Source: Cyanidioschyzon merolae
Taxonomy: Eukaryota
Reading direction: 5' to 3' (one strand)
DNA length: 64,000 bases
Assembly: GCA_000091205.1 (NCBI GenBank)
Contig: AP006501.2
Positions 3,411 through 62,615 of this stretch are shown here, one piece after another (the stretch's first letter is position 1; every line of letters begins with the position of its first letter). Both the position numbers and the translations under genes were made by a program. A model generated the notes under the pieces. It made no database searches, was not told where the DNA came from, and worked only from the letters and a program-made list of their open reading frames with translations.

Positions 3411-3520
3411 CGCCGCGTAAGCTTCGCGAACCAGATCATCAGGAAACTTCAGGGCGCCGCGCTTAACTCGAAGTGCGCCGTACCTTCGGACTTGCTCGGA
3501 ACATCCGATGCGGATGAAGC

Positions 3521-5455: not shown

Positions 5456-6070
5456 GATTACCTCGGTTGCGCTTCAAGGCGCCTCAGCGTCTATCGTACC
5501 AAGGACTGCAACGGAAACCGGGAGCAATGAAGGAATAAATTCCGTTGAGCGATCAACTTGCGACATAGATGTACAGAACGTACAGGAGCAATCTGGGTGT
5601 CGGACACGTCTCCTTCATCGAGCGGGGAGGCGTCTCGCGCAGTGCACGCATCGCTCTCGGTGAGCGTATACCTGGGAAATCAGGCAGTCAACTGACACGA
5701 TGCGTATGCCGTTGAAGCGAAACGCGATCCTGATCAGTAGGGTGTTGTTCAACCGGAAAAAGTTGGATTTCAATTCAGGTCGTAGCCAAGAACATTTTTT
5801 CACTTCGTATTTGTTTCAACCTTCAAACAAGTCTAGACAAGTGGTTTTTCGCAGTATATGACAGAAGCGTTCAAAGAGCGTTGTTTTTTTAAAAAAACCT
5901 AAAAAAGGAAAGCTTTGAGAAAGCAAGTTGACGATCCTGGAGGCCCAGGGTCGCCGGCCGCTAGAGACAAACAAAAAGCAGTGCCGAGTCCAGAAGAAAA
6001 GGAAGAGAAGAAGAACCGAAAGCGGGATGCCCTACGTCGGAGGCGGCAAGAAACATGACTGTAGAACGAG

Positions 6071-8310: not shown

Positions 8311-8579
8311 GCCTCTAAAAGTCGAACTATATGAGAAAAAGTTGGAAGCAGTAGTGGGTGGCCGGTCGAAAAAGGCGGGGAGGCGCCTGCGCGTCAGTTG
8401 GTGACGATTTGTCTCAGGCGCGGTTTTCCCGCCACTACTGTACATGGCCGACGTTGTTCGACTTTCGAAAGGCGTTGATCGCGCGCGAATTTCGCGCTCC
8501 ACCTCTGTTCTTTGGCGCTCTCGCAGACCTGCGTGTGAAGTAGTTTCTGGATTCTCGACGCAAGTTTCGATCTCATAGT

Positions 8580-10091
8580 ATGAACCACCGTACGCCTCTT
8601 TCGGCTCGAGGTGAAGCACGGGCTGCCTATGCAGCGTTTGTACCCGCTACTGGAACAGTGTGGTCAGCGTCGAGACACCGGTCACTTGGCCGGAGCTATT
8701 TCACGGCGTCGCGTCCCGGAACGCTCCAACCACACTGCAGCAGTCGCGGAAAGAGACACAACGTAGACTGGCTGCGCAGTGCCATGAGGGTGCAAGCTAA
8801 TGGAGCGTCGTACCCGGGACGAGGCAACGACCGCCAACTGTCTTCGTTGCCGTTATCCAGCGACAGTTCGGCCCCGCCGTGTCTGATTAAAGTTATCGGC
8901 GTCGGTGGTGGTGGCGGCAACGCAGTGAACCGTATGGCAGATACAGGTATTTCGGGTGTGGAGTTCTGGGCGATCAACACTGACGTGCAGGCGCTGAAGC
9001 GCTCGGCGGCACACCATACGCTGAGCATCGGGAATAAGCTGACCCGTGGTCTCGGAGCTGGCGGCAATCCCGAAGTGGGTCGCAAAGCCGCCGAGGAATC
9101 GTGCGACCAAATTGCAGAAGCCGTCCGTGGCGCCGACCTGGTGTTTGTGACTGCCGGAATGGGCGGCGGCACTGGTTCCGGAGCCGCTCCAGTAGTTGCA
9201 GAGGCTGCCCGCGAGCAAGGCTGCCTAACCGTGGGCGTTGTCACCAAGCCATTCGCGTTTGAAGGCCGGAAACGCATGAATCAGGCGCTGGAGGCTATCG
9301 AGGCCTTGCGCGAGAGCGTGGACACGCTGATTGTCGTGAGCAACGACAAGCTGCTTCAGATAGTCCCTGAGAACACACCATTGCAGGACGCATTTCGAGT
9401 TGCAGATGACATCCTGCGGCAGGGTGTTGTGGGCATCAGCGATATTATCATCCGCCCTGGTCTCATTAACGTAGACTTTGCCGACGTCCGAAGTGTCATG
9501 GCACATGCGGGATCGGCCTTAATGGGCATCGGCACCGGCAGTGGCAAGTCCCGGGCCCATGACGCCGCCGTGGCAGCGATTTCCTCACCGCTGCTGGATT
9601 TCCCTATCGAGCGTGCCAAAGGTATTGTTTTCAACGTCACCGGTGGAGAAGACATGACCCTGCACGAAATCAACCAGGCCGCTGAGGTAATCTACGAAGC
9701 AGTCGACCCCAACGCGAATATCATCTTCGGTGCCCTTATTGATCAGCAAATGGAAAGCGAGATATCCATAACGGTGGTTGCCACAGGCTTCCCTCAGCCT
9801 AACGAGAGCGCCAACAGTGGCGGCTCCTCATCTACATTGAATGCTACGGCAAATGAGTTTTACCAGGCTGGTGCGGCACCGTCGTCACCAAAGCTTGGGG
9901 GAACGAGCCGCCGCGGCGGCATTGCTGCGGATACCGCCACTCACTTTGGGCGTGATGCGGGCGCTCGGCGCCCAGCTCCGGGCCCTCAAGTGCCGCCTCC
10001 CAATCGTCAGGTCACACCTCCGCCACCACAGCCGGGACCGTCGCGCACCATAGGGAACATTCCGGATTTTCTGCGTCGATTCCAAAAGTAA
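8580..10091 (+). CDS. ftsZ: FtsZ, organelle-type (probably mitochondrial) division GTPase, with an N-terminal presequence-like extension
   Basis: Tubulin/FtsZ GTP-binding signature GGGTGSG ([14 protein letters not shown]), [15 protein letters not shown], and the C-terminal conserved peptide IPDFLRRF. About 110 aa of Ser/Arg-rich N-terminal extension precede the GTPase core. Confidence 0.85.
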
Positions 10092-12312: not shown

Positions 12313-15300
12313 TGCTAACTGTCTCGACGCTCCTGGCAGAACTGCTCGCCAACTGCGCCTGCGTTACCAGACAGTAAAAAGCGTATCTTCGACAAATGTC
12401 CGGCTAGCGCTGCTGTGTGATGCTATTCAGCGCTGCTGGCGACGCGGTCCAGCCGTTCAGCGAAGCGGCGCGCTCATTCGCAGCAAGTTCAGTCATGCTG
12501 CAGCCGGTATGCGAAGCGAGTGCTCCCAGACAGACTCGACCTGAGCAGGGTCACTGGATCGACCAAACCGCTGCTTCCGTAGGGAGGGCTGGTCCATGAT
12601 CAGGGGAGCATCGCAACCTCCACAAAGGCGCGGTAGTCGCTTTCATAACTGCCGACATGCATCAAGCAGCCGAGAAATTCTGGTTGAACGTATCCGTCTT
12701 ACACGGTAGAGGTGAACGGTATGCCGCCATTCGCGAACCCATGGAGTAGTGTCGATTACCTCTACTTCAGCCAGCGCTGTATGGGCTCCGGGACGCAGCT
12801 TCAGTTGGTTCTGATCGCTCGTCTAAATGTTAGCCCTAGTCCGTGGAAAAGCTCAGAAACCTCTACAGTACCTGAGAACATGCTCGGATTCCGAAATAGA
12901 CTATTCTCTAGGGGTTTCCGGTAATCAAGTCTATCAGCGCACCAAACGCGTGTTTGGGATAGAGGCTGTCGCTGCCGTGGAAACGTGCGCGCATACGCAA
13001 CAAAGTGTTTTGTACGCGCTGCACGGAGTGTCTAGTCCGCGTGACCGCCAGTGCCCTACTCAACCACCTGGATACAGGGGTTGTGGTTCATTCACGGACT
13101 GGGATGCACCGGTGGCAGCGACAGCGTCCCAGCTGCTGCACGGTGCGATGCATCACACCTCGCCGCCTAAGTAGATATATTGAGCCTTACAGGATGCACA
13201 CACTAGAGAAAACTACCTCATCTAATCTTCAATGGCCCCCATGGGTTTGTGCTGCGTCCTAGTTCCGGGTATCCGAAACTCCAGTCAGCATGGCAAGTGT
13301 GCTGCGCGTGGTGCGTTCTCGCACTCCACCGACACCCCAGCGCAAGTCGATGCCTTCAACCGAAGACAGGGACGGGTCTCGTCGCTGTTTTCATTTGGGA
13401 CCTGCTGTGCCATGCCCTTATCGGGTCAAAAAGAATCTTCAGCCCTAGGTGGCATCACCAAATTTGCTGATATTTCGAAGAAGCCCTGCAGGTATCTCTG
13501 AAATTGTCCACAGCGCGCCAAGTGTCGCAGAAGCACCCGAGGCGCAAGACGCTGGTCGTTGGCCTGCGCGCGGGTCTAGCGGCTTCAGAACGGGGATCAT
13601 CATCTTTGGCAAGCATTTTCGAAAACTGTCCCCGGATGCGATGCTGTATGCGAATAGAGCGCTGAACCCATCGCGCTGGTCTGTTGAACGAGCCCGCTGA
13701 CCTGCAACCGATCGTTCACGTGGCCTGTGCATTGGAGAGCAGGTCAACGACAAGTTCCATTAACGAGGACGACTCCCACGTGGGAAGCGCATTAACGACT
13801 GAAGACGACTGCTCCCAGTGAGATGCAACTTTGGGCGGCTCCGCTGGCTGCCAGGTCTCGGTCCGCATCCAAGGAGTACAAGTTTACCACGTATCCGGCC
13901 GGAAAAGAGTACATCATAGACACGAAGGAATGCGGCTGGGATAAAAGGTTCTGCTGCAGCATGACGCATGCCCTACCCTATGCCCGAGTTCTTGTTCGGA
14001 GCTCCGTATTCGGATACGCGGTGTGCATCCGCCGACGCGCTCAGGAGCGCACAGTTCGCCCCAGACCCCATCCTCTAAACAAGCCTCCGTACGGGAAGCA
14101 GCTCTATCTTGTTGGAACGGGCAGTACGCAGTGGCATCTCGTAGGCCGCTGATCTCGCTTTCCAGGTCACTGGTGGCACTCGCTCATTCGTAGAATCATG
14201 ATACAAACCTTCGTTCCTCCAGCATCACCATAACCATTATCATTACCATCCGCGCTGGACCTGGGAGGCGCTTCGCAGCTCGGAAAATGCCTCCCGAGCC
14301 CGCGCACTGCATCCAGTAGGGGTGGCGTGCTCGCGAATCACGAGGTCGCTGCGATGCGCGGTGCAATGATCATGCTATTGAAAAAGAACAGAGACTAGCC
14401 ATTAAATAGCACCGAGATGACGGTTTCTTTTCCCCTCTAGGGTAAACGTTAAAAAGGGCAAGAGGCTTCTATATTGTCGAAAGCTTACCTTATGCGTGGA
14501 ATTTTCCCAAAGCTTGACGAGTCTGCTAGGCAAGTGCATTTGCTCCAACCAGTGGCAGGTGCTTTCCTAACACCTGAGCAGCTCACCCGCAATACAGTTT
14601 ATTCTGGGACTAGACGCAGTAAAGCTGCATATGGGCGTCGCCCGGATCGCAGTAGACCCCTAGCATATCGCTTCGCGCTGCCGCAGGCAACAGGCTTGTC
14701 TGCGCAGCTTGCTGGCTCCCAGAATGATTACGCACTCCGACCCCGTATCAGATGCACCACACCTCGAGCCGTCCCCATCAGCAGTATGGCGAAGCGGTTC
14801 CGTCTCCGTGCCGCAACCGCACCAGCGGTATAAGCGCTACGACGAGTGCTCTCGAAAGGCACTCGGCGCAAGATAGAACGTATCCAACGACCAGTACACC
14901 CGAGAGGAACTGTGATTGGTGGAACTCGCATGCAGGCTGCATCATGATGGACACTTTCCTGAAAGCCATTATCCATTCCGAATTGTGGGATCCTTGCTCA
15001 TTGTAAACAATCTGTCGAACAAAAACACATGCAATGAACGTACGCGAGAGCGACGCTGGCGAGGAGCGCAACGCTGCGCTGCGTTTCCTCCAGCTCGAGT
15101 CTAGCCTGCGTCCAGTATTCGTGCTTGTCGAGCGGATGCGAGTCGCGACGCATATAGCGGCTTTCCAAGCGAGTCCTCTGCGAAGCTTGCGTTCGCTTTC
15201 CGTGAAGGGAGGCTCTACGACCGGGTTGAGTTGTTGCTCTATTGCTTCAGCGCGGCAAGCTGAACACTTATCGTGGCGAGCGAACGTCTCCACAGGTTGC

Positions 15301-31163: not shown

Positions 31164-33062
31164 ATGGTGCTCCCGACGGATCCCGAGTTCCCGTTTCCGA
31201 TAGACGCTCTGGTGCGCATCGAGCTGGAGACTGGGGAAACCCTATGGGTGCGTACGCGAACACACGACGTTGTGTCGAAGAGCGATAGCAACGGCAAGTC
31301 GTGGACAGCGCGGCTGCGCTGGCAACAGCACTCGCAAAGGGTCGTGATCCGTCCGAATGTGCGAAATCCTCAGCACCCCGTGGTAACACGGATGCGGGAT
31401 GGGAAGCTGGTTCTGTGGAGGCAGCTCGAATCAATGCCTACTCGTGCGGCATGTGGAAACGTCGCGGAAGCTCCTGTGCGGCCGAGTCGAAGCAAGCGTC
31501 GTCGCACGTCGTCGGCTCCTGTTTCGAGCGCCCCGCAGTTGAAAGCACAAAAGTCAAAGGAAATTGCGCACGAGGTCAAAGACTCACATGATGTCGAGAG
31601 CGCTGCTCCAGGAGCAGCGGTCGCGACAAACACCAGAGCCACTGCAGTGCGTGAAGCGCCCCGTGACGAAACTCCCGAACATATGCGTCGGCAGCGTCGC
31701 TGCCGTACGCTGCCCGAACGGCCAGCAGCATCCATTGCCACGGTGCCAGCATCTGCAGGCAGCGTCTCGACGCCGCGGATCAGCGCGTGCATACGAGAAA
31801 CGAGTCGTAAAAACGCGGAGGAACCGAGCTCCGCACGAAGCACGCCACAGAACCGAAACGCATCGCGCATGCCGCGTCCGATACGGAAGACCGAATCCAG
31901 GTGTGCCTGTGCCTCGACCCGTAACCCGTGTCCGAGGCTCGCAAAAGCGCCGCACGCGAATCGTAAGGATTTAGAAAATTACAATCTGCACAGCACTGCT
32001 GCTGCTGCAGCTGGAGCTGCTGCCGCTACCGGGGCACCAGATACGGACCTTGTGGAACGAACGGATACGGAGACAAGGATGGCTCTGCTCGATGAATTGC
32101 GCCATGCACATGCCGCCGCCGCCGCTGCTACCAGCTCCAGCATGATTCATGGGCATCCCGTGCCCGCGACGGATCGCCGTTCGGTGAAGTACGGGCCGCA
32201 CTGGCGATTCGCACCGCTTGCAGCCATTGCCGCGCACGCGCGCAGCCTCGCGACCCCTGGGGTTGTCACGGGAGTCGGCGAAACCGCATGCTCGACGCTT
32301 TCGTTACTGAAACTGCTCGCGGAGGATACGAGGCGATTGGTTGACGAGATACTGATCCTAGCTTCTGGTACCGACGAAGCGGAAACAACAGAGCCGGCAA
32401 AGCGCCTGCCCGATCGCGATACAACCACAGAGACGCTTGGACGCATTTTGCTTGCGTACGCACAGGCCTTGGTTTCTGTGGCGGAGGCGCAAGCAGGTTC
32501 CGGAGAGTCGCAAAACACTGTGATGCATGACCTGGGAAAGACCGCTCTTCAGGCGCTGATCCAGGCTGAACGATCGGGTATTCGAGAACCCCATTTTCGA
32601 CATGCACTCCGAACTTTGATCCGAGGCTTCGTACCCGCGACAGCATCAGCGGATTGTGTCGCTGCTATCAGCGCAATACTCGAAGAGCATCTTCCGAGCG
32701 GACGCATAGAGCGAGAATCCCACCGCTTAGAGCTACTGTGTCAGGTGGTTACCCTGGGTCCGGATCTGCTTGCCCTAGCATCAGTATTGAGGCGTGCGAG
32801 CCGTAACCAGACGTCCCACGTCCTGTCTGCGGTCGCGTGCCCTGACCTGAGGGCTCCTTGTTCTACCAAATGGTACAGGCAGGTCGTCCAGCTCTACGAA
32901 ATCGGGGCCAGAACCATCGCGAATCAGCTAACTGGTTGTTGGCCGGCGGAAGACCTGCAGGAACACACCGCTGATTTCCTCGTCAACGGGGCGATGCAGT
33001 TGCCTTTGCTTTGTACAGGAAACCTATCAGAACACGATTCAACTGTTGCGCCTGTGAGATAG
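31164..33062 (+). CDS. Hypothetical protein (632 aa) with a low-complexity Ala/Ser/Arg-rich centre
   Basis: Long ORF. Poly-Ala/Ser stretches (STAAAAAGAAAATGA; AHAAAAAATSSS). Confidence 0.4.
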   Translation: MVLPTDPEFPFPIDALVRIELETGETLWVRTRTHDVVSKSDSNGKSWTARLRWQQHSQRVVIRPNVRNPQHPVVTRMRDGKLVLWRQLESMPTRAACGNVAEAPVRPSRSKRRRTSSAPVSSAPQLKAQKSKEIAHEVKDSHDVESAAPGAAVATNTRATAVREAPRDETPEHMRRQRRCRTLPERPAASIATVPASAGSVSTPRISACIRETSRKNAEEPSSARSTPQNRNASRMPRPIRKTESRCACASTRNPCPRLAKAPHANRKDLENYNLHSTAAAAAGAAAATGAPDTDLVERTDTETRMALLDELRHAHAAAAAATSSSMIHGHPVPATDRRSVKYGPHWRFAPLAAIAAHARSLATPGVVTGVGETACSTLSLLKLLAEDTRRLVDEILILASGTDEAETTEPAKRLPDRDTTTETLGRILLAYAQALVSVAEAQAGSGESQNTVMHDLGKTALQALIQAERSGIREPHFRHALRTLIRGFVPATASADCVAAISAILEEHLPSGRIERESHRLELLCQVVTLGPDLLALASVLRRASRNQTSHVLSAVACPDLRAPCSTKWYRQVVQLYEIGARTIANQLTGCWPAEDLQEHTADFLVNGAMQLPLLCTGNLSEHDSTVAPVR

Positions 33063-34501: not shown

Positions 34502-35761
34502 TCAAGGTGATTCGGGTTCGGGTTCGGATTCGGGTTCCAGTTGCGCAACGATAACGCTCGCATCGTCACCCTTCCCAGGACAAACAAGTCTCGGCATGCG
34601 TTCCGATATGTAAGGATCGCAATTGGTGCAGCTGGAGAAGTTATGTGCGAGTTGTGCCAGTTGATAGCTTAACAACACTGGATCTATGTGGGTAAAGGTG
34701 CCCAAGCAGGTCCGATTCGCCACCGCCAGATTCGAATCATACGCAGAAGAGACCGGACACACCAGCGCGAGAATCTGGCTCTCACTGATATTATCGAAAA
34801 GGCCATCCGTCCCAAATATAACCGTATCGTACGCTCGTAGTCGGAACACGTCGAGGTAAATGGGCACCACATCACCCGTACACGTCTCGATCGTGATGCT
34901 GGTGCGTTGGGTTTCCGGATTCCCCTCGATGCCGTTGAGGCTCGAGAACACAATTGTTTGATCACGAATCACGAGGAACCCGATATTGCCTGTACGCACG
35001 GCATAGAGCAGATTCCCATTGTTTGCGAGACATGCCGCCAGCACCGACACCGAACGCACTGCTTCGGGCGGCCGCATATGCGTCACGGCATCACGGAGAC
35101 AGCTGAGTAGTTCGAAGCGTGGTTGCCAGTTTCGTCCTCGAGCGGTGTCTTGCTCCGATTCAGAAAAAAGCACCTGTTCAATGAACCCGTCTAAGATGTT
35201 GCGCACATGGTACTGCGCCGTGTACATATGCGCCAGTTCTACATCGCGCGTGTCCTTAATCGGTGCGAATGCCGCGCGAACAACACCACGCTCAGTGGCG
35301 TAGAGAACGTGACCGCAGTCCGCAAGGCCCACCGCGCCCTTCCCCTCGCAAACGAAGACCGTGTCCGTCGACCCCGAGAGAAGCAACGCCTCACCAGGAA
35401 ACGTTGTACCTTGTTCCGCACTAGGACGATCGCCGATGATCTGGTACGTTCCACACCGAAAGACGCACCGCTGCTCTGAGACTGCAAGCGGACGCTGCTC
35501 GTTGTGCGGCTCGCTCCGCAACGACAGTTTCGCCACGCCGCACCGCCGCTGTGCCTCGTGTGAGTGCTGACCGCGCAAACACCTCAGTGCAGACGCCGAC
35601 GAGAAGAGGCTTCCGCGATAAACACACGTGTTAATAACGAACTGCAACGGATTATCAGGTTCAACTGGCTGCCGCAACGAGCTTGGGGTTTCTTTGAACA
35701 GAGTGCCGCCTCGTTGCCTGCCGAGCGACCGCATGGCGAAAACGTACCGCCTGCTTGGCAT
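34502..35761 (-). CDS. PP2C-family protein phosphatase, PTC7/PPTC7-like
   Basis: VIFGTDGLFDNISESQILALV (compare PTC7 ..SDGLFDN..). Also GSTDTVFVCEGKGAVGLADCGHVLYA and LLYAVRTGNIGFLVIRD. The N-terminus is Arg-rich and presequence-like. Confidence 0.65.
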   Translation of the reverse strand: MPSRRYVFAMRSLGRQRGGTLFKETPSSLRQPVEPDNPLQFVINTCVYRGSLFSSASALRCLRGQHSHEAQRRCGVAKLSLRSEPHNEQRPLAVSEQRCVFRCGTYQIIGDRPSAEQGTTFPGEALLLSGSTDTVFVCEGKGAVGLADCGHVLYATERGVVRAAFAPIKDTRDVELAHMYTAQYHVRNILDGFIEQVLFSESEQDTARGRNWQPRFELLSCLRDAVTHMRPPEAVRSVSVLAACLANNGNLLYAVRTGNIGFLVIRDQTIVFSSLNGIEGNPETQRTSITIETCTGDVVPIYLDVFRLRAYDTVIFGTDGLFDNISESQILALVCPVSSAYDSNLAVANRTCLGTFTHIDPVLLSYQLAQLAHNFSSCTNCDPYISERMPRLVCPGKGDDASVIVAQLEPESEPEPESP

Positions 35762-35845
35762 AGACAGTGACCGGAAAGCTGCACCGAAAACGCCGTTGTG
35801 CTCTTCTCGAGCCTGTGTTCCGAGACCTGCACGCCGCCTCCAACA

Positions 35846-38553
35846 AACGCCGTTCTAAAGAAAAGGCTGCTGTCACCAGTGGTACAGCAGTGGCGCGCCA
35901 CGCGCCCCCCAGACAAAACGTCTCGAGCAGATGCGCAGATGCCCTTCAGATTTCTTGAACCGGCCACCCAATACTGCTTCCAACTTCTTTTCATATAGTT
36001 CAACTTTGAGAGGTTGTCCAAGAAAATTTTCTCTTGACAGCTGTGGAGGTCGTTTCTCCAGCAGCGCACATTTCCTTATATTGATTGCGGCGTTAAAGTC
36101 ACGATTCACAAACTCCATATGTTTCTTGCCATTGGTAGTTGGACTCACTAGTGCAAGCAATCCACGAACTTTCGCCCTCCTTTTCATTTGCTCTTCCGTC
36201 AGCGGTCCGTACTTTTTTACATCCTCAGGGCTTCGCTGATATTTTTCCATCTCGACCGTCTGAAGTGTGCACCCCAGTTCATGGTGTGTATAGGACGTTC
36301 GGAACTCATCTGCAGGTATCGTAGCGAAGCTCCGTGCGCACTTCTTGTACGTTCTTGTTGTTGGAGCTGGCGTAGTTCCTTTTTTGGGTCCTCCATCGCC
36401 CTGCTCCGTATGCTACTACGAGCCTTTGACTTTCATCCTCCTTCAAGGCGCTCAACTGACTGAAAAAGTTGGCGACTGCAAGCCGCTTCCCACAATACAG
36501 GTTCATAAGCAGACGGGCCCATCGAGGCTTTGTATACTCCTCCCACAGCGCATCCCAATGAGCAACGCGAACTTCCATAAACTCCCGAAAAGCGTTAGAG
36601 TCCGCTCCTCGGGTCGTCACCTCGCTCAAAGCCTCCAGGTGCTCTTTCATTCCTGAATTCCATGTAATGATTTTCTTCCTTGCATTCATTACGCCGGATC
36701 CTCGGTAGTATCTCGCTCTCGAGAACCTCAACAGACGCATGTCTTTCTGACGTGAGTTGCCGTCAGTACCATCTTCCGCGCGCTTGGGAGCAGCGATGGT
36801 TACGATATTCGTAACCCCAGGGTCCGCGCCAACGACAAAGTCGTTATCCTGCACTTTCTGTGTGGCACAATCTGCCTCCTTCTCATCTTCATGCTTCGTC
36901 ACGGACACTATCGAAGACGGAACTGGACGATCCGCCTTCAAGCGCCGATAGTGAACACACATGGCTACTCCATCGGTTTCGATCACCCCTGTGAATACCT
37001 TTTGTTTGCTCACTTTCAGACTTGTGAAATCGAAGATATTCTTCCAGTACGTGTCCCGGTTTTCACCGGTACTCTCCTTCCTGCTGACATTAAACTCGGG
37101 GCTGAACTCCTTCATGATGCCGTAAAGGATTCTGGAATCGATAGTCACAAAATGTGACTCGATGTTGGACAACGGAACGACGTTGAAGCGCTTACCCAGA
37201 AGCGCAGCCTTTCGTCTCCCCCACTCTTCATTTTTTCCTCACTCAGCTTCATCTCTGCCTTGCGTTCGAGCTCACGGTCCAGAAACACAAAGTAACGCAG
37301 GACGTGGCGGTAGTATCTTTCGTTATCTTTTTTCAACTCTGATATGTTTGCTGCTCGGTTCGCCAACCCCAGTACCGCACGATGCTCTTGTATAGCCGCT
37401 CGGATGACGGAATCCTCATTCATGCTCCTGAGTGATTTCTTCTCGTCGATGAATTCAATCTCATCTTCATGCTTGCGATCGTTCGTGTTGCCATTGATAA
37501 TCGCCCATATCCCCTGGCGAATGAGACCGGGTAGAGTGCAAAGATGGAGCGTATCATGAAGTTCTTGAGGTTCATTGTTAAATGGTTCTTTAGACTGGTG
37601 AGGTAGTTCATCGCTCCGTAGGTGTAAATATTCGAATCCCCCCCTGTATCGAGTACCGTCGAAGCGGAACTCGGCGTAAATTTTGTGGAGGGCATGAACT
37701 CGCTCATTTCACCTAGACGTTTCACCGGTGCCAAGCATCCGGTGATGAAAAACGGTTTTGTTGAGAAAATCTTCCAGAATATGGACTGTTTTGATGTCCG
37801 TAACGTCATGATACCATTTTCTTAGGAAATCCACCATTCCTTGAGAAGCGTCACGAACACCGCTGGAGTTCGGCTCGACACGGTTCCAGATTGCCTCTCG
37901 AACGTTTTCCCTGTACGGATCCTTGGTATGTTGAAGAAGACAGGCTTTCACCGCCATCTCGTCGTACCGTCATCTTTTGCGTAGCCTTTGACGTAGGGCC
38001 TCCCGCTTTTACTTCTTCTTCTTATCCTGTTCCTTTGCACTTGGCACTGTTCTTCATTTTTTCGGGCTGCCGGCGACATTGGCGCCCAGGATCCTCCACT
38101 TCCCCTCCCGTAACTTTCCTTTTTCAATATAAAAAACCGAAACAACTTTGGATGGTACAGCTATTACGCATAAAAAAGCACTTGAATACATTAGTGTGAA
38201 GGTTGAAACACGATTGAGGACAAACAATGGGCTTTTCTACGACTTGAAATCGTTAAAATTTGTACGATAGAGCTACATGCTTCATTTTTCCGATGGAAAA
38301 ACACTTACATTGACAATGGATCCCAGATTGTGCTATAAATGGGTATCGGATTTGGCGAAAGCATCCATCATGCTGCATTCTAACTCCAGATTCCATTACG
38401 TATACTTCCTTTCAGATGTACTACTCGTCTCGTGCTTCCTGTCATTCGCCGGGTGCATGCGTTGATGCACCCGCCTTAGCGTCTAATCCGCTGATGCCGA
38501 TGCATAACAGAGACAGGACAGCGTTGCCGTACTACTGAGGGCGTCGGATCGAG
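35846..38553 (-). mobile_element. Fanzor/TnpB-like element copy 3 (pseudogene with frameshifts), head-to-head with copy 4
   Basis: ORFs 37709..37957, 37420..37809, 37145..37423, 36306..37172 ([16 protein letters not shown]; HWDALWEEYTKPRWARL) and 35873..36250 (MEKYQRSPEDVKKYGPLTEEQ...FVNRDFNAAINIRKCALLE). The left end (reverse complement) at 38553 is homologous to the solo left-end repeats (cctcgatccgacgccctcagtagtacggcaacgc). The right-end motif (reverse complement) ttagaacggcgttt lies at ~35846-35860. Confidence 0.7.
35873..37957 (-). pseudogene. Fanzor1-like RuvC nuclease pseudogene (copy 3)
   Basis: Colinear with copies 2 and 4. At least 3 frameshifts. Confidence 0.6.
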
Positions 38554-38682
38554 GAATGCTCCACCTGACACAGAGTCGGAGTATAGGATCATTCTGGGAG
38601 CCAGCAAGCTCCGCAGACAGACACACTGCCTGCGATAGCGTGAAGCTATATACCAGGACTCCACCGCGACCAGATCGACGCC

Positions 38683-41476
38683 CAGATGCAGTTTAACTGC
38701 CGCTAGTACCAGAATAAACAGTGCTGCAGACGAATTGCTCAGATTTCTATGCAGCACCCGCCACTGGGTGGCGAGCACGAAGCACGTGCCTGGGGTACTC
38801 GTCTGGCTCGCGGGTTTTTCCGTCGAGAAATTCAACTTTCGACAAAACGGGAACCGTGTTTCCTTTTTATCGTTTATCGTGCAGGGAAGATAAATTGGTA
38901 TATCGTTGCTAGTTAATGGTTAGTCTCTGTTCTTTGCTCTGTATGCTGCGGTCGGTTAGCGCGCCGGGGAGATCAGGTCGTACGAGACAAGACGCACGTG
39001 TCGCCGTTGAAAGGAAACGCGAAATTGTGAAAATCCGTTTTCTTATTGTTCTACCGTACAAGTTGTATTTGCGTTAAAGTCGTAACAAAGTAAAGTTGTT
39101 TCATGCAATTGTGTTTCAAACCTCAAGTAAGTGTATACAAATGATGTTTGGCAATTCAGATCAGAAGCGTCGAAAGAACCTTCTTCTTCTTCAAAAATAA
39201 AAAAGGTTATGGAAAAGAAACTGGAGGATCCTGGACATCTGGTGTCGTCGACTGCCGGAGACTGACGAAAAACATGGCGGAGCTAAAAGGAACATGAGAA
39301 GACGATGGAGCAAAAGAGGAAGGCCCGAGGTCAGAAGCTGAACGAACCACGACAGTACGACAAGATGGTGGTGAAAACCTGTCTTCTCGCACATATCAAG
39401 GATCCGTCCCGGCGAAGGCTGCGAGAGGCCATCAGAAACCGTATCGAGTCATACTCCATGAGTGTTATGATGGCTTCTGCAGGTATAATGCATTTGGTGA
39501 AGGAGATGCGCGACGACGTAACGGGCATCAAAACAGTCGAGGTTCTGGAAGAATTTTTCGGCAAAACCTTTATTCGTCACCTGATGCTTGGTACAGGGGA
39601 AACGTCGAGGAGAAATGAGCGGGTGCATGCCCTCTGCCAAAAATACTCCTTCTACAGCTCCAACGGTACTCGAGACAGGGGTGACTCGCATATTTACACC
39701 GTCGGGTTATGAAGCACCTCACGAACCTGAAGAACTATTTGACCATGAGCCTGGAACGTTTCATGATACGCGCCGTCTGTACGCGCTACCCGGGCCCCTC
39801 TCGCGAAGGGATATGGACCATCATCGACGGCATCACAAACGATAGTAAGAATGAGCAGGAGATCGAATTTGTTCACGGGAAGACATCACGCAGGAGAGCA
39901 AATGAGGATTCTGGAATCCGTGCAGCTATTAAAGAGCATCGTGTGGTCTTGGGGCTGGCGAGTCCAGCAGAAAAGATATCCGAGTTGAAAAAAGATTCGG
40001 AAAGATACGATCGCCTCATCTTGCGCTATACCATATTCCTGAACCGACAACTGAAATGCAAGACCGATATGGAGCAGGGTGTTGAAGCAAATGCAGTGTC
40101 GGAGAAACGGAAAGCTGCGCTTCTGGAGAAGCGCGTCAACGTCGTTCCGTTGTGCAACATCAAGTCACATTTTGTGAGTATCGACTCCGAAATCCCTTAC
40201 GGCATCATTACGGAGATCTGTCCAGTGTTCGATGTAAGCAACAAGCAGTTCACCGATGAAAACCAGGAGACGTACTGGAAGAAGAATATCTTCGATTCCA
40301 AACGTCTCAGAACGAGCAAGAAAAAGGAATTCACTGGGATGATCGAAAGTGATGCGATAGCCATGCGTGTACATTATCGGCGCTTGAAGGCGGATCGTCC
40401 AGTTCTGTCTTCGTTGCCGTCGCTGGCAAAGCGTGAAGAAAACAAAGAGGCTAGCCCAACGACGCAGGAGGTGCATGAGAACCACTTTGTCGTTGGCGCG
40501 GGCCCTGGGAACACGAATATCAGGACCATCACAACACGCAATTGCGGGGATGATGGCATCGACGACAACCTACGTCAAAAAACACATGCGTGTTTTAAAG
40601 CTTTCAAGAACGAGATATTACCGAGAATTCGGTGTGATGAATGCAAAGAAGAAAAGTGGGGCGTGGAACGCAGGATTGAAAGAGCACCTGGAAGCGATCA
40701 GCCAGGTGACGGGCCGGGGAGCGGACTTTCACGCTTTTCGGGAGTTTATGGAAGTTCGTGTTGCTCATTGCGAGGCGCTGTAGGAGGAGTATACAAAGCC
40801 CCGGTGGGCTCGGTTGCGTATGAATCTACACGGTGGGAGCCAGCGTGCGTTCGCGAGTTTTTTCAATGAATTGAACGTCTTGAAGGAGAGCGACAGTCAG
40901 AGGCTCGTACTAGCGTATGGAGCAGGGCGATGGAAGACCCGAAAAGGGTGTACACGAGCTCCAACTACAAGAACGCACAAGGAGTGTGCAAGGCGTTTCG
41001 TTACGATACCTGTAGATGAGTTACGAACGTCGTATACACACCATGAACTGGGTTGTACGCATCATAGAGTGGAGATGGAAAAGTACCAGTGAAGCCCTGA
41101 GGATGTAAAAAAGTACGGAGCGTTGACGGAGGAACAAATGGAAAGCAGGGCGAAAGCTCGTGGACTACTCGCATTACTGTGTACAAACAAAGATGGCAAG
41201 AAACGTATGGAGTTTGTGAATCGTGACTTTAACGCCGCTATCAATATAAGGAGATGTGCGGTGGTGGAAAGAAGACCTCCAGAGTGGACACGATAGAACT
41301 TTGTTGCGCAATCATTCAAACTGGAACTGTATGAGAAAAAGTTGGAGGCAGTAGTAGGTGGCCTGTCCAAAAAGGCTGGGAGGCGTCTGCACGTCAGCCG
41401 AAGACGATTTATCTAGCGCGGGTTTCTCGCCACTACTGTACACGGCCGCCGGCGACGTTCGTCTTTTAGGGCGTTC
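38683..41476 (+). mobile_element. Fanzor/TnpB-like element copy 4 (pseudogene; the RuvC-I Asp is replaced by Gly)
   Basis: Left end ccagatcgacgccc at ~38683. ORFs 39305..39712, 39709..40869 ([16 protein letters not shown]) and 40814..41092 (VDELRTSYTHHELGC), then FVNRDFNAAINIRRCAVVE. Right end cgtcttttagggcgtt at ~41465-41476. Confidence 0.7.
39365..41290 (+). pseudogene. Fanzor1-like RuvC nuclease pseudogene (copy 4)
   Basis: Starts MVVKTCLLAHIKDP. Frameshifts near 39712 and 40780. D>G at RuvC-I. Confidence 0.6.
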
Positions 41477-41763
41477 CTTGTGTCGGCGATACCACGGACC
41501 AGCAGCAGGCGACCGCGCCCATCGCCCGAAAGAAGCAACCGGTTTCGCGAGCTGGACGCAGTACGGCGCTCTGCCCTGTGCGCCTTTTGTGGCTTTCAGG
41601 TACGCGGTCTACCGCTCCGGACACTGCTCCAACAGTCTGGCCGGTCCTTGATTACGACAAGTAGCGCTGAAAGCAAGCCTTTCGTGCACGGAAACTGAAC
41701 GCGAGTCGGAGCACTGTTCGTCACACAAGTGCTGGGTTATCCGTTCTCGTCCCTATCATAGAC

Positions 41764-42165
41764 GTGTGTGTGTGGGCGTGCGGGTGGCTCCGCTTTGCTC
41801 CTCGAGATTTTCCCTTCCGTGAAACGGGGACGTGTCTGCAGGATTATGTGACGTACGCGAGTTTGATCGGAAGACAGTTACTGTCAGGAAAGCGCTGGCT
41901 GGAGCTGCCCGCAAGACGACTGGTCGCAGGAGGTGTTTTCGTGGTAAGCGTCACCCTCGCCGGCATCACGCTTTACCACGGGTGGTATTCCAACACACAA
42001 AGCATTCAAGACGATCATGTCCGGAATGGCTCTGTGGAGACGTGCGACTGCGCCCCGCTATGGAGATGCATGCAAGCGTTCGGTAGCGAGCACGCACCAG
42101 AGTGCGCAGCGGAACGAAGCAGCCTCCTGCGCTGCATGGCGCACAGCAAGCCTTCTACATCATAA
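41764..42165 (+). CDS. Small predicted membrane protein with a Cys-rich C-terminal tail (one TM helix; CxC...C-x11-C...C-x9-C)
   Basis: 133-aa ORF. TM segment LVAGGVFVVSVTLAGITLY. Tail CDCAPLWRCMQAFGSEHAPECAAERSSLLRC. Confidence 0.3.
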   Translation: MCVWACGWLRFAPRDFPFRETGTCLQDYVTYASLIGRQLLSGKRWLELPARRLVAGGVFVVSVTLAGITLYHGWYSNTQSIQDDHVRNGSVETCDCAPLWRCMQAFGSEHAPECAAERSSLLRCMAHSKPSTS

Positions 42166-42217
42166 ACATGAAGGGGCACCATTGGCGGCCTTTATGTGAC
42201 TGTGCAAAGAAGTGACA

Positions 42218-42853
42218 TCATGAAACTTGCTCATGGAGAATTTGGTCAACCATCCAGTACAAACGCGGACGGCGTGGTGCACGTGGAGCGCCTGGCAACG
42301 CTCGGCGGCTGAGGCAAAACCTGAAAACGGCAACGTCGTCCACGCTCGAGAGAACCTGGATACGGCAGTGGTAGAGGTATGGGGTGACTCGCATTGAGCT
42401 AAGCACGCATCGACTCTTGTGACGGAGCAGCGCGGAATACGGCCTCGCCATCATGATGCGCTTAAAGCGTTCAAACTGACCCAAATCAATGCGCTTTCCG
42501 AAGAACTCATTCTTGATCGACCAGACGTCAAAGTTCGCAAAGGCATACAACGCTTCAATACCCTCATCACACTCCTGCGCGGTGGTGAGTGCCTGTCGAC
42601 GCGAGAGACCTTCCAGTAAGTGCTCCACAGTTTGTTCAGCGGAAAGCTGTGCATAAAGCGCAACGGTATCACGCCAGCGAAGCGAGTCGCCCCCGGCCGG
42701 TCGAGGTGCACACGCGTCGAGCTTGGCGGGACCTGCACCCCGGCGCGCGTTTGCGAGGCGAAGCCGTTCACAGCGCGTTACCCGCACTGCTTTGGCTGGG
42801 TAACGCAAATAATTCAGACCCAAAGAAGGACTAGAAGCAAGTGATACCAGCAT
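42218..42853 (-). CDS. Hypothetical protein (211 aa)
   Basis: ORF with host-like codon bias. No family recognised. Confidence 0.35.
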   Translation of the reverse strand: MLVSLASSPSLGLNYLRYPAKAVRVTRCERLRLANARRGAGPAKLDACAPRPAGGDSLRWRDTVALYAQLSAEQTVEHLLEGLSRRQALTTAQECDEGIEALYAFANFDVWSIKNEFFGKRIDLGQFERFKRIMMARPYSALLRHKSRCVLSSMRVTPYLYHCRIQVLSSVDDVAVFRFCLSRRALPGAPRAPRRPRLYWMVDQILHEQVS

Positions 42854-43427
42854 TGATGGCGGTTCACGCCTCCAACAGGCACCCTTTTGGAGTCGACCTC
42901 AGTGCAGCAGCGTAGCGGTACCTGGGGGGGAGAATTCGCTGCACCCCACACAGGATTCCGTTGCGCGAGCTGTGCACGCACTTTGGCGAGCATTCGCGCT
43001 ACCTCGATGGCCAGCGCGCGCAACCGAAAGCGCAGCAGCGCCTCTGGCACGAATGGCGCCACCAAACTGCCTTCCGCAGCTTGCATGGTGGATGGTGTCG
43101 GATTGTCCAGGTTATGCGCTTATGCTAATGTGCGCGACGCGCATCGGCATCAAGGGTACCTTCTGGGCGCAAGGTCCAGCGAATCGGATACGCATACGGG
43201 GCCAGTGCGCTTTCTGCGCCTACCCACTGTGGTGGGTGTCAAGCACAAACCCGCATTGCCAACCGACAACAGCGCATTCCATGCATGATCACGAAGGAGA
43301 GCGGCGGCTCCCAGCATTCATCCTAACAGCCAAGTTTCTCCAGCGTGTCGTTCAGCAAAGGCAAGCCTGCATCCGCAGACTGTCCGAGCACATACCGACG
43401 ACGAGACCCGATTCTACGTCGGGTGAA

Positions 43428-43745
43428 GCACGCCTCAAGCCGACGCCCTCTCGGGTATAGAAAAGCTGTTCTAGCTCTATGAACTATCTGCTCTAGCATT
43501 TAAGGTCCAAAGGCGGATACGGAACGGCAGGCACTAGGCACACCCGATGGGACGTATGAAACGGCCGGAATATCCGAGAAGAGGTATCGGTAATGTAACT
43601 TGGAGGTTCGGGGGTTTGATGGACACCTTACCGCCCACTGAAAAAAACCACAAAAAAAGTAAGAAACAAATGCGCTTAATCGGAGAACGCTGGCCGAAGT
43701 AAACGTGTTGTCAGTGAAAAAAATCCGAACGTGCTGCTGTGGTGG
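43428..43745 (+). repeat. Solo left-end fragment (~320 bp) of the Fanzor-like element family (repeat A)
   Basis: ~80% identical to 50483-50812. Also homologous to the left-end regions of copy 3 (reverse complement at 38553 and below), copy 4 (38683+) and copy 2 (5459+). Begins CCTCAAGCCGACGCCCT. Confidence 0.75.
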
Positions 43746-47894: not shown

Positions 47895-48220
47895 AACTTG
47901 GTATCATGTATGTTCAATAGAGCGAAAACGTTTCGCAACCATGTAGGTTCAATGAATACCCAGGCGCAGACGCCTCCCAGCCTGTTTTGACCAGCGGCCT
48001 GCTATCGGTTTTGATTTACCCAGGTGCACCTGTAGTCTGGGAGGCTGCCCACAAAGTTGGATCGCGTCAGTTCTGCGGATCTGGCCTTCAGCACCGCACA
48101 TCGTCTGATATTGATGGTGGCGTTGAGGTCTCGGTTCTTGATCTCCTTGCGTGCAGTGCCACTGGTTGAACGCACGATTGCAAGAAGTTTTAGAACTCGT
48201 GCTCGCTGTGCCACTAGAGG
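47895..48220 (-). mobile_element. Truncated Fanzor-like 3'-end fragment (copy 7)
   Basis: ORF 48002..48214(-) reads ..LLAIVRSTSGTARKEIKNRDLNATINIRRCAVL..NFVG. Frameshifted continuation ..AGRWSKQAGRRLRLGIH (compare VVGGRSKKAGRRLRVSW). The 3' tail is deleted and degraded. Confidence 0.55.
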
Positions 48221-48726
48221 CTCGCCTATCCAACACCTCTTCTTCTGCTTCTTCGTCGTCGTCGCTTGTGCTTCTTCTTCGCTCGATCGTCAGCAAGAAG
48301 AGGATTTTTCGGCAGCGGACGATAACGGCCCTTCAGGATCCCCGACTTTCACGCCCATAACTTTCCCTTGCACTCCTTATTTCTTCAAATGAACACACCT
48401 TGAATGCATCAGCGCTAACCAGCGAGACAGCCTTTGATGAAACGCATCTAGGGATTGGAAAACAATTCAGGAGCATGTCAAGGACACGACGATGCGGGAA
48501 TCGCGCAGGCATCGATCGGGCGACGCAGGCGGGTGCACACGCTCCAGTTCACACTGAAACGTAGGAGCAGGCGGTTGAAAGGCCCTCGCGTGGGCAACAA
48601 CGTGCTCTGCGTTGCTTCGGTGGCGTTCATAGCAAGCTGTTCAGGTACGGGGTTTGTGAGGTCTGGCTTGGCCCAGGTGTGAGCAAGCTCTGCTCATAAA
48701 CGTTATCTGTAGTCGGTACGAAGACG

Positions 48727-50482: not shown

Positions 50483-50812
50483 GCTACCCTCGAGCCGACG
50501 CCCTTTGTGCGGTACAGCAACGCAGCGCTAGCTCTATGAACTATCTGCTCCAGCGGTTCAGGCGCAAAGGCGGATACGGAACAGCAGGCACTAGGCACAC
50601 ACGAGAGGACGTGAGAAACGACCAGAATATCTGAGAAGAAGTATAGGTAATGTAACTCGGAGGTAGGGAATTCGGTGGATACTTCACCGCGCACTGAAAA
50701 AAAAACAGAAAAAGAAAAGAAAGGAAAAAGCGCGTAATCAGAGAACGCTGGCCTAAGTAAACGTTCTGTCAATGAAGAAAAATCGAAATCGCTGCTTGCC
50801 GGTGGGCGCTCA
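50483..50812 (+). repeat. Solo left-end fragment (~330 bp) of the Fanzor-like element family (repeat B)
   Basis: Pairs with 43428-43745. Begins CCTCGAGCCGACGCCCT. Truncated at the same internal point as repeat A. Confidence 0.75.
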
Positions 50813-52004: not shown

Positions 52005-54506
52005 ACTCATTGAGAAAGATACGTAAACGGCGCGTGCGCTCCACGCCAGACCGAGGCGTAGCAGCGAATCATCCGTACATGGCCCCCGATGGGACACGCT
52101 ATTTGTGGCAGCGGTCCGCGAGAAGAAAGCGATACCGTCGCGCTCGTACTTGCTGCTTTTATGCGTATATGAGTGGATGACGCAACCCAGGCGATCGAAA
52201 CGTCTACAGCCCGGGCGCGAAAAATGAAGCAGACTGAGGGTAACGGCCGTTTGCGGATCAATCGCAAATGCACCCTGGAGGCGCACCCTGCTGACGTCGT
52301 ACGATCACGTTGCCGGTCCAGAAAAGTGGGAATTCACGCGAGGCATTCCTGATGTGTCGACAGAGGCAAATGACAGGCTGGTGGCGGTGGAGGAGCTCGA
52401 AACGCTTCCGACTTTGGACGGGACATCGTCGCCAGCGCACGAGTCGCGTAGCTGCGTCCGAGTTCATCGTTTGGCGCTCGGCCTCGGGCTGACGGATATC
52501 GTATCGTAAGGCTGGTTTACGCATCATGTCTGTCTTCGTTGCATCTTGCGCTCCTACGTGTTCCTCAACGGACCCGTATAGAGCAAAGCAGACGACGCCC
52601 TGTCCGAATACTAACGCCTCGCCGCCACATGCGTTTCTTCTACGCGTCTCCCATATGTCACATCAAGGGTAATGATGGCATCGTAGACACGTTTGACCTG
52701 CATGGAGTCACCAGGGATCGACGGCCGGCCTCTCCGAGCAAGAAACAAGCATTCGACCGGCGTCGCGAAGCGCATGGACGGTGCTTATCCCAGGTCTCTC
52801 GTTCACAGATACAATGCGGAGCGAATGAAAATCCATATACAGGCATTTCGTGAAATCTCGACCCGAGTCGAGCAACGAGACTCATTCTCAGCCGCTCACC
52901 GTAGATGAAGAGATGGACCTGGAGATGCCGGGCTGAAGAACCTCATTGCCGTCGATGCAACGCTGCGTCAAGGAGACACAGCTAGAGACCTGAACGGAAA
53001 ACAGATGAAACGAGGCAACGTTACCGGGGCTCGTCATAATCCGTAGTCGGGCATGGCAGATGCCGGGACGCATACCAACAAATGGGATGAGGTCGTCGAG
53101 ACCGGTCTCGACACTCTCGACATCGTACTGAATAGTGGCACATGGCTTGTGCGCTTCATGTAGAGAGACTATCAATGTGTAAATCGCTCATGCGGACGAG
53201 GTTTTTGGCAGGACAACACGAGACCGCGCCAGAACACCAGCGATTTCAGTTGTTCAAGGGCGAGAAGCTCGCATTCGCCTACTTGTTCAATGCCTTGGAA
53301 AAGCAAGTAACTGACAAGTCGCGTTGTTAGGTAGTGACCCACGGCGCCGAGCACGCTGTAGCGCGCAAGGGCTGCTTTCGCGCTACCTCGTCCATAGCCT
53401 GCAACGAGCACGGGGATCGATTCGAAACGATTCCCATGGATGCGTCCAGGACGGCATCCATGAATCATGAGCAGGAGCGCACGCTGCAACAAATAGAGAA
53501 GAAGAGCGCCAAACAGAGACGGTTGCAAGAGGTGATGTAGAATACGCGGACCGGACCTCAAATGGCGAGACAATCGTAAGCGAGAGGCTTGCTATGGAAT
53601 GACTCCAGAGCTGGCAAGCATGCGCGCAAACGTGCTTCGCACTCAGCCTTGAACGCGTCAATGAACATCCAAAAACATGTCGTGCTTGCAGAGCGCCCAG
53701 CGGCTCTGTGTCGAGGCAAGTCTCTGACGGAATCGTTCAGTACCCAGTTTGGGCATCGTGCAGAAACGTTGCGATCTGGCGATGAGCGAAAATCACTGGT
53801 CACGAGAGACGGGATTGGATCCTCGCCTGGAGCAAGGCATTGGCATGGTCGGGTTCCGCTCTGTCACGAACCGCTGGAGCACCGTCTTCACACAACGGGA
53901 ACGATTTTGCGGGGTTACCGGTCGACGAAAATTCGTGCCCCATGGTTATCGATAACCGATTCCAGCACACTTGTTCTTCACGCCGTATCAGAAAAGAGGC
54001 GCGTCTCATATGCAATGCTCGTCATATCGACGCATTCCACGACGGGGTCCAGGGCCTGGGCGGGTCCCCGCTGAGCCTCGGCGACGACGACGTCGCGCGC
54101 ACTGTGCGCAACGGCACGAAGGCGGTTGTGCGGCACGCCTCAGAAATACAGCGCGTACGGCACTTTTGCCGTTTCGCATACATATCCACGCATCAGAGAC
54201 GCGGTCCTTACCGAGTACCTGGGCAGACTCGCGTCCTGCACACGACGCCAGCACAGAGTCACGTCGACGGATCGCAGCCGATGAGAGCAGTTGCAGAGGA
54301 TGCCTCCGAGGACCCGTGAGCGATTCCTCCACAGCAGCCGCCACAGCAGCCGCCACCACGGCCACTTCCATGTACGATGGTTCCGCGAACGATACCGGGA
54401 ACTGGCCCCCATCGGGCCGTGTTACGCGTCAAATACAACGCGGAGATTCTCTCGACAGCGTCTACCGACAGCAGAAGAAGCAACGCGCATCCGCGTTTCA
54501 TCGACG

Positions 54507-61598: not shown

Positions 61599-61671
61599 TC
61601 CCTGGTCGTTATCCACGAAGCGTTCGCTCGAATGACGCACCCGGTGAATGCGAAGACAACCCTGAAAACAA

Positions 61672-62194
61672 ACCCCTTTCAAAAGAAAAACGTTGCTGCC
61701 AACGGTGTACGGTAGTGGCGACCAGCGCCTAAGCCTTGACGTCTCCAACTGACGTGTAGACGCCTCGCCGTCTTTCTGGACCGGCCGCCTACAACTGGTT
61801 TCAATTGTTTCTCATATAGTTCCACTTTGAGAGGGTGTCCCACAAAGTTCACTCTTGTCCACTTTGGAGGCTTTTTCTCCATCATCGCACATCTCCCTAC
61901 ATTGATTGCTGCGTGAGAGTCTCGGTTCGCAAATTCCATACGTTTCTTGCCATCACTGGTAGTACTTACTAGTGCAAGCAAACCACGCACTTTCGCTCTC
62001 CTTTCCATTTGATCTTCCGTCAGCGCTCCGTACTTTTTTATATCCTCAGGGCTCCGCTGGCACTTTTCCATCTCCACTCTCTAAAGAGTACACCCCAGTT
62101 CATGGTGTGTATAGGACGTTCGGAAAGCATCTACAGGTATCGTGACGAAACGCCGTGCACACTCCTTGTGCGTTCTTGTCGTTGGAGCTGGTGT
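61672..62194 (-). mobile_element. Truncated Fanzor-like 3' half (copy 5a), inverted with respect to copy 5b
   Basis: Reads ..APTTRTHKECARRFVTIPVDAFRTSYTHHELGCTL*RVEMEKCQRSPEDIKKYGALTEDQ..FANRDSHAAINV..NFVGHPLKVELYEKQL.. on the minus strand. The tail ttttgaaaggggtt ends at ~61672, 74 bp upstream of the DPH3 ATG. Confidence 0.65.
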
Positions 62195-62615
62195 ACACTC
62201 CAGAGGGTGGAGATGGAGAAATGCCAGCGGAGCCCTGGGGATATAAAAAAGTACGGAGCGCTGACGGAAGGTCAAATGGAAAGGAGGGCGAAATTTCGTG
62301 GATTGCTTGCATTAGTAAGTACAACCAGTGATAGCAAGAAACGTATGGAGTTTGTGAACCGAGAACTTAACGCGGCAATCAAGGTAGGGAGTTGTGCGGT
62401 GATGGAGAAAAGACCTCCAGCGTTGACCAGAGAGGATTGTATGGGGCAACCTCTCAAAGTGGAACTATTTGAGAAAAAAATGAAACCAGTAGTAGCTTGG
62501 CGGCCCAGAGAGGCTGGGAGCCGTCTGCACCTCAGCTGGAGACGATTTGTCCAAGGCGCGTTCGCCGCCACGACTACACACCGCTGGCGGCAGCGGTTCT
62601 CTTTTGAAAGGCGTT
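62185..62615 (+). mobile_element. Truncated Fanzor-like 3' fragment (copy 5b)
   Basis: CTLQRVEMEKCQRSPGDIKKYGALTEGQ...FVNRELNAAIKV...PLKVELFEKKM.. The tail tcttttgaaaggcgtt ends at 62606-62615, 28 bp upstream of the ATG at 62643. Confidence 0.65.

Follow-up and report, generated by a model that had tools for sequence, protein, structure and literature searches.

How did two copies of a transposon with a gene for a Fanzor nuclease come to lie head to head in the genome of a red alga, and does the pair do anything there? The question is raised by positions 35846–41476 of a 64,000-nucleotide (nt) stretch of Cyanidioschyzon merolae DNA (GenBank contig AP006501.2), the whole of which is called the window below. 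The original prediction, made from the sequence of the window, described a head-to-head inverted pair of near-full-length elements about 130 bp apart, forming a fragile quasi-palindrome that might act as a bidirectional unit. Both arms are copies of CMe-1A, a transposon family of cyanidialean red algae that lacks terminal inverted repeats (TIRs) and carries a single Fanzor1 gene. The copies are ancient and inactive; probably, they are separately derived and came to lie 5' to 5' as a by-product of the way in which the family inserts.

The inverted pair is real and far above chance. A self-comparison of positions 35000–42500 returned 11 inverted collinear blocks with 72–82% complementarity, joining 35911–38216 to 39106–41414, and blastn aligned the arms 35882–38216 (minus strand) and 39106–41441 (plus strand) in a single stretch of 2248 nt at 76.4% identity (E = 0). 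The same protein blocks are found in both arms by tblastn, and the arms are homologous. Their head-to-head orientation, with the right (3') ends outward, is confirmed by self-comparison, by blastn and by alignment of the window to the published 3169-bp CMe-1A consensus, taken from the supplement of Bao & Jurka. The parts of the pair are as follows.

35846–38281, minus strand: copy 3, a CMe-1A element truncated at its 5' end, consensus positions 735–3169 (blastn with the published consensus)
38282–38290, no strand: where the two 5' ends meet, with a gap of about 9 bp by the published consensus or about 5 bp by our own module boundary
38283–41475, plus strand: copy 4, a full-length CMe-1A element of about 3.19 kb (blastn and terminal motif)
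38283–38943, plus strand: 5' module of copy 4, similar to the repeat TE-N2_CMe, about 650 bp, consensus 1 to about 650, contiguous in the alignment

Copy 3 matches the published consensus at 84.2% over 2445 nt (window 38281–35848, blastn), and copy 4 matches consensus 1–3161 in one piece at 82.8% over 3186 nt (window 38291–41467, blastn). The right ends were set by the conserved terminal motif ...GGCGTT, which stops at 35846 in copy 3 and 41475 in copy 4, as had been predicted for the outer ends. The inner ends need correction: in place of 38553 and 38683, the consensus alignment gives 38281 for the end of copy 3 and 38291 for the start of copy 4, the latter moving to 38283 if the 5'-module boundary drawn in the present analysis is used. 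The supposed AT-rich spacer of 130 bp does not exist, as the elements are about 9 bp apart and 38555–38684, which has a guanine-cytosine (GC) content of 56%, sits inside the 5' module of copy 4. This module, which opens with a terminal hairpin (TTTTTCC-GAT-GGAAAAA), is all that lies between the arms. The description "near-full-length" suits copy 4; copy 3 is missing the first 734 of 3169 nt, a stretch made up of the TE-N2-like module plus some 100 nt from the left end of the core, and because of this the homologous parts of the arms stand about 890 nt apart. "Quasi-palindrome" is a generous word for an arm identity of 76%. No duplicated flanking DNA was found around the pair by self-comparison or blastn, no target-site duplication was found around it, and no tRNA or other known RNA that could have been the insertion target was found in the window.

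In C. merolae, CMe-1A has been described as a family with about 150 members that match its consensus at about 80% identity (Bao & Jurka, 2013, Mobile DNA 4:12; PMC3627910). The consensus, of about 3 kb, encodes a Fanzor1 protein of 734 amino acids (aa); it has no TIRs and no determinable target-site duplications, its class is unassigned, and its 5' 635 bp are 95% identical to a separate repeat, TE-N2_CMe (PMC3627910). The window copies agree with the published family in their consensus identity of about 80%, in the absence of TIRs and in the presence of a solo TE-N2 repeat, and the consensus protein rebuilt from them reads almost like the published CMe-1 protein. When the first 80 nt were compared with the reverse complement of the last 80, the local score was 11 for the consensus and 7 for copy 4; the score-11 match is internal, not terminal, and is reached by 2% of shuffles. 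The TE-N2 module is present in copy 4 and missing from the 5'-truncated copy 3, and at about eight further loci the same module lies directly 5' of the core. Both the family and its Fanzor1 gene have been known since 2013, and the pair is ordinary transposon debris. Head-to-head pairs, 5' truncation and alternative 5' modules are absent from the published description (PMC3627910).

In a majority consensus made from the four large copies, a reading frame of about 640 aa that carries NRDFNAAINIR is recovered. Pfam returned nothing for the local open reading frames (ORFs), the consensus protein or the full-length homologues, bar a faint match to the Cas12f TNB domain (E = 0.76), and sequence and profile searches of the PDB with the family proteins found nothing. 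Since annotation by sequence failed, a search by fold was needed. A protein search gave 80 relatives, nearly all on metagenome contigs of the Joint Genome Institute (JGI), including an intact protein of 752 aa (P0001) and the full-length P0055, P0058 and P0064 at about 42% identity. An AlphaFold model of P0055, a homologue only 43% identical to the consensus of the window copies, was built on 16 relatives and had a predicted local distance difference test (pLDDT) score of 81. It best matches the Fanzors SpuFz, GtFz and PpFz from Spizellomyces, Guillardia and Parasitella (E 1e-15 to 6e-14, template modelling (TM) score 0.63–0.70), with Cas12f and TnpB well behind (E 5e-5 or weaker). The columns of D398, E569 and D636 (numbered as in P0055) show conservation of at least 90% among 16 homologues, and the RuvC motifs of the family are GxDPG, VDEFRTSYTHH and NRDFNAA. 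Judged by this modelled fold, the CMe-1A protein is a Fanzor1, belonging to the eukaryotic TnpB-like, RNA-guided nucleases. The case may serve as a worked example of how a family that neither Pfam nor a sequence search of the PDB detects can be tied to solved Fanzors by fold.

In neither arm is the Fanzor1 gene intact.

36017–38047, minus strand: Fanzor1 pseudogene of copy 3 (tblastn with P0001 gives three high-scoring segment pairs (HSPs) in frames -1, -3 and -1, with 3 stops)
39308–41308, plus strand: Fanzor1 pseudogene of copy 4 (tblastn HSPs in frames 2, 1, 1 and 2, with 3 stops)

Each frame has at least two frameshifts and three in-frame stops. In copy 3 the last 175 or so codons are still open, and in copy 4 the RuvC-I aspartate has been replaced by glycine. 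Both genes are pseudogenes, and neither copy can make a Fanzor. Copy 2, elsewhere in the window, has a 75-bp in-frame tandem repeat in its Fanzor ORF upstream of RuvC-I (7128–7486; 4.8 units, 91% matches), and the number of these units differs between copies, with none in copies 3 and 4 and several in L001/P0001.

The Fanzor frame is followed in each arm by a conserved tail.

35846–36016, minus strand: conserved non-coding 3' tail of copy 3, with a subterminal hairpin and the terminal motif ...GGCGTT; the flank begins TGTTGGAGGCGGCG
41309–41475, plus strand: conserved non-coding 3' tail of copy 4; the flank begins CCTTGTGTCGGCGAT

These last 170–190 nt are non-coding and have a mean column identity of 80% over 30 distinct copies, with homology stopping at GGCGTT, exactly where the flanks turn copy-specific. 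A hairpin (CGTTCGA-CTT-TCGAACG) lies near the 3' end, and candidate helices (AGTAGTGG/CCACTACT and the terminal hairpin) are paired in 77% of cells. Covariation in these helices did not exceed that in shuffles, the family being too uniform to decide the matter; RNAalifold found only 9 pairs in the tail, and there was no Rfam match to it. The 3' end of Fanzor elements carries the scaffold of the guide RNA, with the guide read from the flank (PMC13565253), and by analogy the CMe-1A tail may be an omega-RNA-like region; a Fanzor omega-RNA would run about 15 nt on into the copy-specific flank. The first bases beyond ...GGCGTT are often rich in G and T and alike between unrelated insertions (TGTTGG, GATGGTG, TGGTGTGG, GTTGGTG), as seen in the window at 35826–35845 (minus strand), 41476–41495 and 8477–8496, and at many other loci. 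This could reflect a preference for certain target sites, or the true end of the element could be a few bases further out.

If the pair had arisen from one element, its arms might be expected to be sisters, and in neighbour-joining trees of 41–51 distinct copies they are not each other's closest relatives. The trees are star-like with long terminal branches, and the Jukes–Cantor distance between the arms (about 0.30) equals that to unrelated copies. By identity, copy 4 is only the 102nd of 133 matches to copy 3, whose nearest relatives are the module-less copies L008 and L009. The arms share derived sites above the average, but no more than copy 1 of the window does with copy 3 or copy 4; this points to an old subfamily and not to sisterhood. 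The pair also falls short of a palindrome at its centre, where 734 nt differ between the arms. Nor was there a trace of gene conversion between them, as their identity to each other is the same in both strains compared below and variant alleles show no preference for the state of the other arm. The possibility that copy 4 is nested in copy 3 was considered and rejected, as the missing left end of copy 3 does not lie beyond copy 4, where scores are at background and nothing matches the consensus.

The arrangement is not confined to this locus. Mapped on 71 related loci from metagenomes, the element has its 3' end in all copies that no contig end interrupts, with 5' starts anywhere from consensus 1 to 2739. 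Pairs of copies 5' to 5', within about 25 bp or overlapping and with the 3' ends outward, occur at five distinct loci, and close tail-to-tail pairs at none of the loci mapped.

Window, 35.8–41.5 kb: the pair described here, junction gap about 9 bp
Window, 61.7–62.6 kb: a smaller pair, 61671–62195 (minus strand, consensus 2645–3167) and 62185–62615 (plus strand, consensus 2739–3169), both 5'-truncated, overlapping at 62.19 kb
L043: a pair with a junction gap of about 2 bp
L044/45/57/59/61: one locus
L053/56: one locus; in L056 the pair is 1449–4575 (minus strand) and 4599–7092 (plus strand), junction gap 24 bp

In the smaller pair of the window the arms are about 83% complementary and their 3' ends are outward, with an overlap of about 10 bp at the palindrome GTGTACAC. 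The pair in L056, which is also seen in L053, is at an unrelated locus and is arranged like the present one, with 24 bp separating the 5' end of a complete element from an inverted copy that has no module. In the L056 arms the 3' halves are closest to one another (distance 0.12, with 54% of derived sites in common) and the 5' halves are very different, which suggests gene conversion between the arms or a chimeric origin.

Taken with the tree, these observations favour the reading given at the outset, in which copies 3 and 4 derive from separate elements and lie 5' to 5' through the family's mode of insertion. Since 3' ends are universal and 5' ends variable, copying would start at the 3' end. 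On the simplest reading, both ends of a broken target would have gained a copy primed from the 3' end of that copy, after which the 5' ends of the copies were linked; another possibility is that a second element inserted right at the 5' end of one already present. Copy 3 comes from a lineage or an event that lacks the first 734 nt. Several points weigh against this reading. The evidence for copying from the 3' end is the truncation pattern only, and neither a target-site duplication nor clear microhomology at the junction backs a particular insertion chemistry. The bias of five head-to-head pairs to zero tail-to-tail is weak (one-sided p of about 0.03) and comes from a small sample, and the loci are on metagenome contigs chosen by protein patterns. 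Moreover, in a star-like tree old sister arms would look like any other pair, so that both arms may conceivably have formed together from a single template.

A possible but less probable alternative is that two independent insertions became neighbours by chance in an intergenic gap tolerant of transposons, with the 5' end of copy 3 deleted later and the recurrence of head-to-head pairs due to chance or ascertainment. Neither arm is nearer to its partner than to other copies, the two are of different 5'-end types, and the window is rich in CMe-1A (8 fragments), all of which speak for this. It is harder for chance to account for five abutted head-to-head pairs against no tail-to-tail ones and for junctions as tight as these, and on the far side there is no remnant of a disrupted copy, as nested insertion would leave.

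Local inverted duplication of a single copy, for instance through fold-back repair at a break, with the arms then diverging over a long time, is considerably less probable still. The geometry is palindromic, the sharing of derived sites by the arms in block A is at the 98.8th percentile, and the kinship of the 3' halves in L056 would also suit such an origin; against this, the flanks are not duplicated, the arms are asymmetric (734 nt, including the whole 650-bp module, are in one only), the excess of shared sites is equalled by copy 1 with copy 3 or 4, and the partner arm ranks only 102nd of 133 by identity.

Whether the pair is as unstable as had been supposed can be judged from other strains. 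An exact-protein look-up found the upstream ORF at 31164–33062 in six independent assemblies; the same look-up with the neighbouring ORF at 34502–35761 found no orthologous copies. One of the loci, L074 (JGI contig Ga0080006_1131325), covers the pair in full, collinear with the window (98.95%) and with an identical junction sequence. The remaining assemblies end at or inside copy 3, and short-read assemblies tend to stop at repeats. The original prediction called the pair fragile and recombinogenic and proposed that assemblies be checked for structural variation. In L074 the sequence runs collinearly through pair and junction with no sign of rearrangement, the arms are only 76% identical, and no exchange between them was seen; fragility is thus not borne out, and the pair appears to be inherited unchanged between strains as a structure.

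Its sequence is less constant. Between the window and L074 the flanks, including non-coding DNA, differ by 0.07–0.47%, copy 3 by 2.4%, the 5' module of copy 4 by 2.1% and the rest of copy 4 by 3.5%, so that the transposon copies differ 10–40 times more than the flanks. Within copies the differences come in patches, with up to about 6% per 500 nt. The same holds for copies 1 and 2 (window 981–7336 against L025, on the same JGI contig as L074); over both regions the copies differ by 2–10% and their flanks by 0.07–0.5%, between strains that are about 99.9% identical. When copy 3 was compared in three strains, 26 of 57 singleton alleles (46%) equalled the family consensus, as did 10 of 26 in the two strains whose singletons are most safely derived; under random point mutation, about 5–6% of alleles would be expected to match the consensus. 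Hypermutation of the deamination type was considered as a cause and rejected, as transitions do not dominate the differences (33 of 57 and 40 of 89). No donor was found for the patch of copy 4 that diverges most (alignment columns 2180–2420, about 11% different between strains), none of the copies compared being closer than 88%. To judge from the alleles, the strain differences bear the signature of templated change, and the cause could be ectopic gene conversion among copies or the mixing of paralogous reads in short-read assemblies. Differences directed towards the consensus could, like the head-to-head bias, help to test for homology-directed exchange of sequence among eukaryotic Fanzor elements.

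A further and distinctly speculative step, which we think unlikely as it stands, would join the two sets of observations: the head-to-head dimers and the retained 3' ends would be the footprint of transposition, and the excess of strain differences towards the consensus that of ongoing templated repair (ectopic gene conversion) among copies, possibly started by Fanzor cleavage. If this were true, the dimers would show priming from the 3' end on both sides of a break, with the copies then joined.

It is very improbable that the pair is a functional unit, either as a mobile composite or through outward guide-RNA or promoter modules acting on the neighbours: the 3' ends do point outward, that of copy 3 lies 85 bp from the start codon of ORF 34502–35761, the same architecture recurs at L056 and the 3' tails are well conserved, but neither nuclease gene is intact, the arms enclose no cargo and are as diverged here and in L056 as random copies, hence showing no recent move of the whole unit, the pair evolves faster than its flanks between strains, not slower, and no signal of structure or covariation marks a functional RNA. 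A composite transposon is likewise not seen in the layout, where only about 9 bp lie between the elements, and the L056 arms are no closer to these than random copies are. The proposal of a bidirectional unit thus meets broken frames and, between the arms, nothing but the 5' module of copy 4; it holds a grain of truth in that both arms may point a guide-RNA scaffold outward, as in Fanzor elements. The pair probably has no present function, and is itself of little importance, being made of two defunct transposon copies between genes of a red alga from hot springs.

In this family the Fanzor core is joined to at least three alternative 5' ends. In several loci a repeat of about 750 bp stands directly before the Fanzor core in place of TE-N2, with which it has a core of about 200 bp in common, in the opposite orientation. 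A third 5' extension, of about 55–100 nt with the palindrome GGACACGTGTCC, is found in copy 2 and about 11 other copies. TE-N2 also occurs by itself.

14376–15016, minus strand: solo TE-N2_CMe-like repeat without any Fanzor part, 79.5% identical to CMe-1A consensus 5–644
43157–43723, plus strand: alternative 5' repeat of about 750 bp
50488–50782, plus strand: the same alternative repeat
L001, 4401–5133: the same alternative repeat
L020, 308–1050: the same alternative repeat

The rest of the window holds further copies of the element and some host genes.

1036–3409, plus strand: copy 1 of the same repeat
5679–8476, plus strand: copy 2 of the same repeat, with the 75-bp unit repeated 4.8 times
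8580–10091, plus strand: an intron-less nuclear gene for plastid-type FtsZ, 83% identical to FtsZ of Cyanidium caldarium
34502–35761, minus strand: neighbouring ORF, earlier named PP2C, with its start codon 85 bp from the right end of copy 3
47966–48425, minus strand: Fanzor-derived remnant
53250–53714, plus strand: Fanzor-derived remnant

The second remnant has only 32% protein identity to P0001 and may belong to a different Fanzor lineage. The label PP2C for the neighbouring ORF finds some backing in PP2C-like C-terminal motifs (FGTDGLFDN and GDDASVIV) and none in Pfam, where there was no match even at E = 10. The exact FtsZ sequence turned up only in metagenomes, C. caldarium being the closest named relative. 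The window has long intron-less ORFs and a GC content of 56–59%; the FtsZ gene, the intron-less ORFs and the GC content together place the host among the cyanidialean red algae.

Known mobile elements resemble the CMe-1A pair in part. In twin priming of L1 elements, the two segments come from adjacent but distinct stretches of a single template, and the 3' end is present in just one of them. The pair has in common with this an inverted structure joined at internal points in a family prone to 5' truncation; unlike it, both arms here cover the same sequence and both have the 3' end. Among Fanzor1 proteins, structures have been solved for SpuFz1, GtFz1 and PpFz1 (PDB 8GKH, 9CEU, 9CER and 9CF1; PMC11423790), and in Fanzors the RuvC glutamate lies just upstream of the zinc-finger region (PMC13565253). 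The CMe-1A family shares with these the fold of the whole protein and the D/E/D residues, with the glutamate in VDEFRTSYTHH just upstream of the zinc-finger region, at only 11–16% identity to the solved proteins. Unlike SPu-1, its carrier has neither TIRs nor TA duplications. The Fanzor1 elements CRe-1, CRe-2 and CRe-3 of Chlamydomonas, which are of Helitron2 type, are often 5'-truncated with almost all 3' ends intact (PMC3627910). CMe-1A is likewise truncated at the 5' end with its 3' ends kept, and has a 3' hairpin as well as the 5' hairpin of the TE-N2 module; in contrast to them, it lacks TC...CTRR termini, and the variable-length target duplications were not seen. A candidate for an asymmetric terminal repeat of Helitron2 type is weak (score 11) and not kept in copy 4, and no RepHel partner was found in about 80 loci, though no systematic search was made. 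The biased head-to-head arrangement of CMe-1A copies and their consensus-directed strain differences could help to classify a Fanzor carrier whose transposition mechanism is unassigned.

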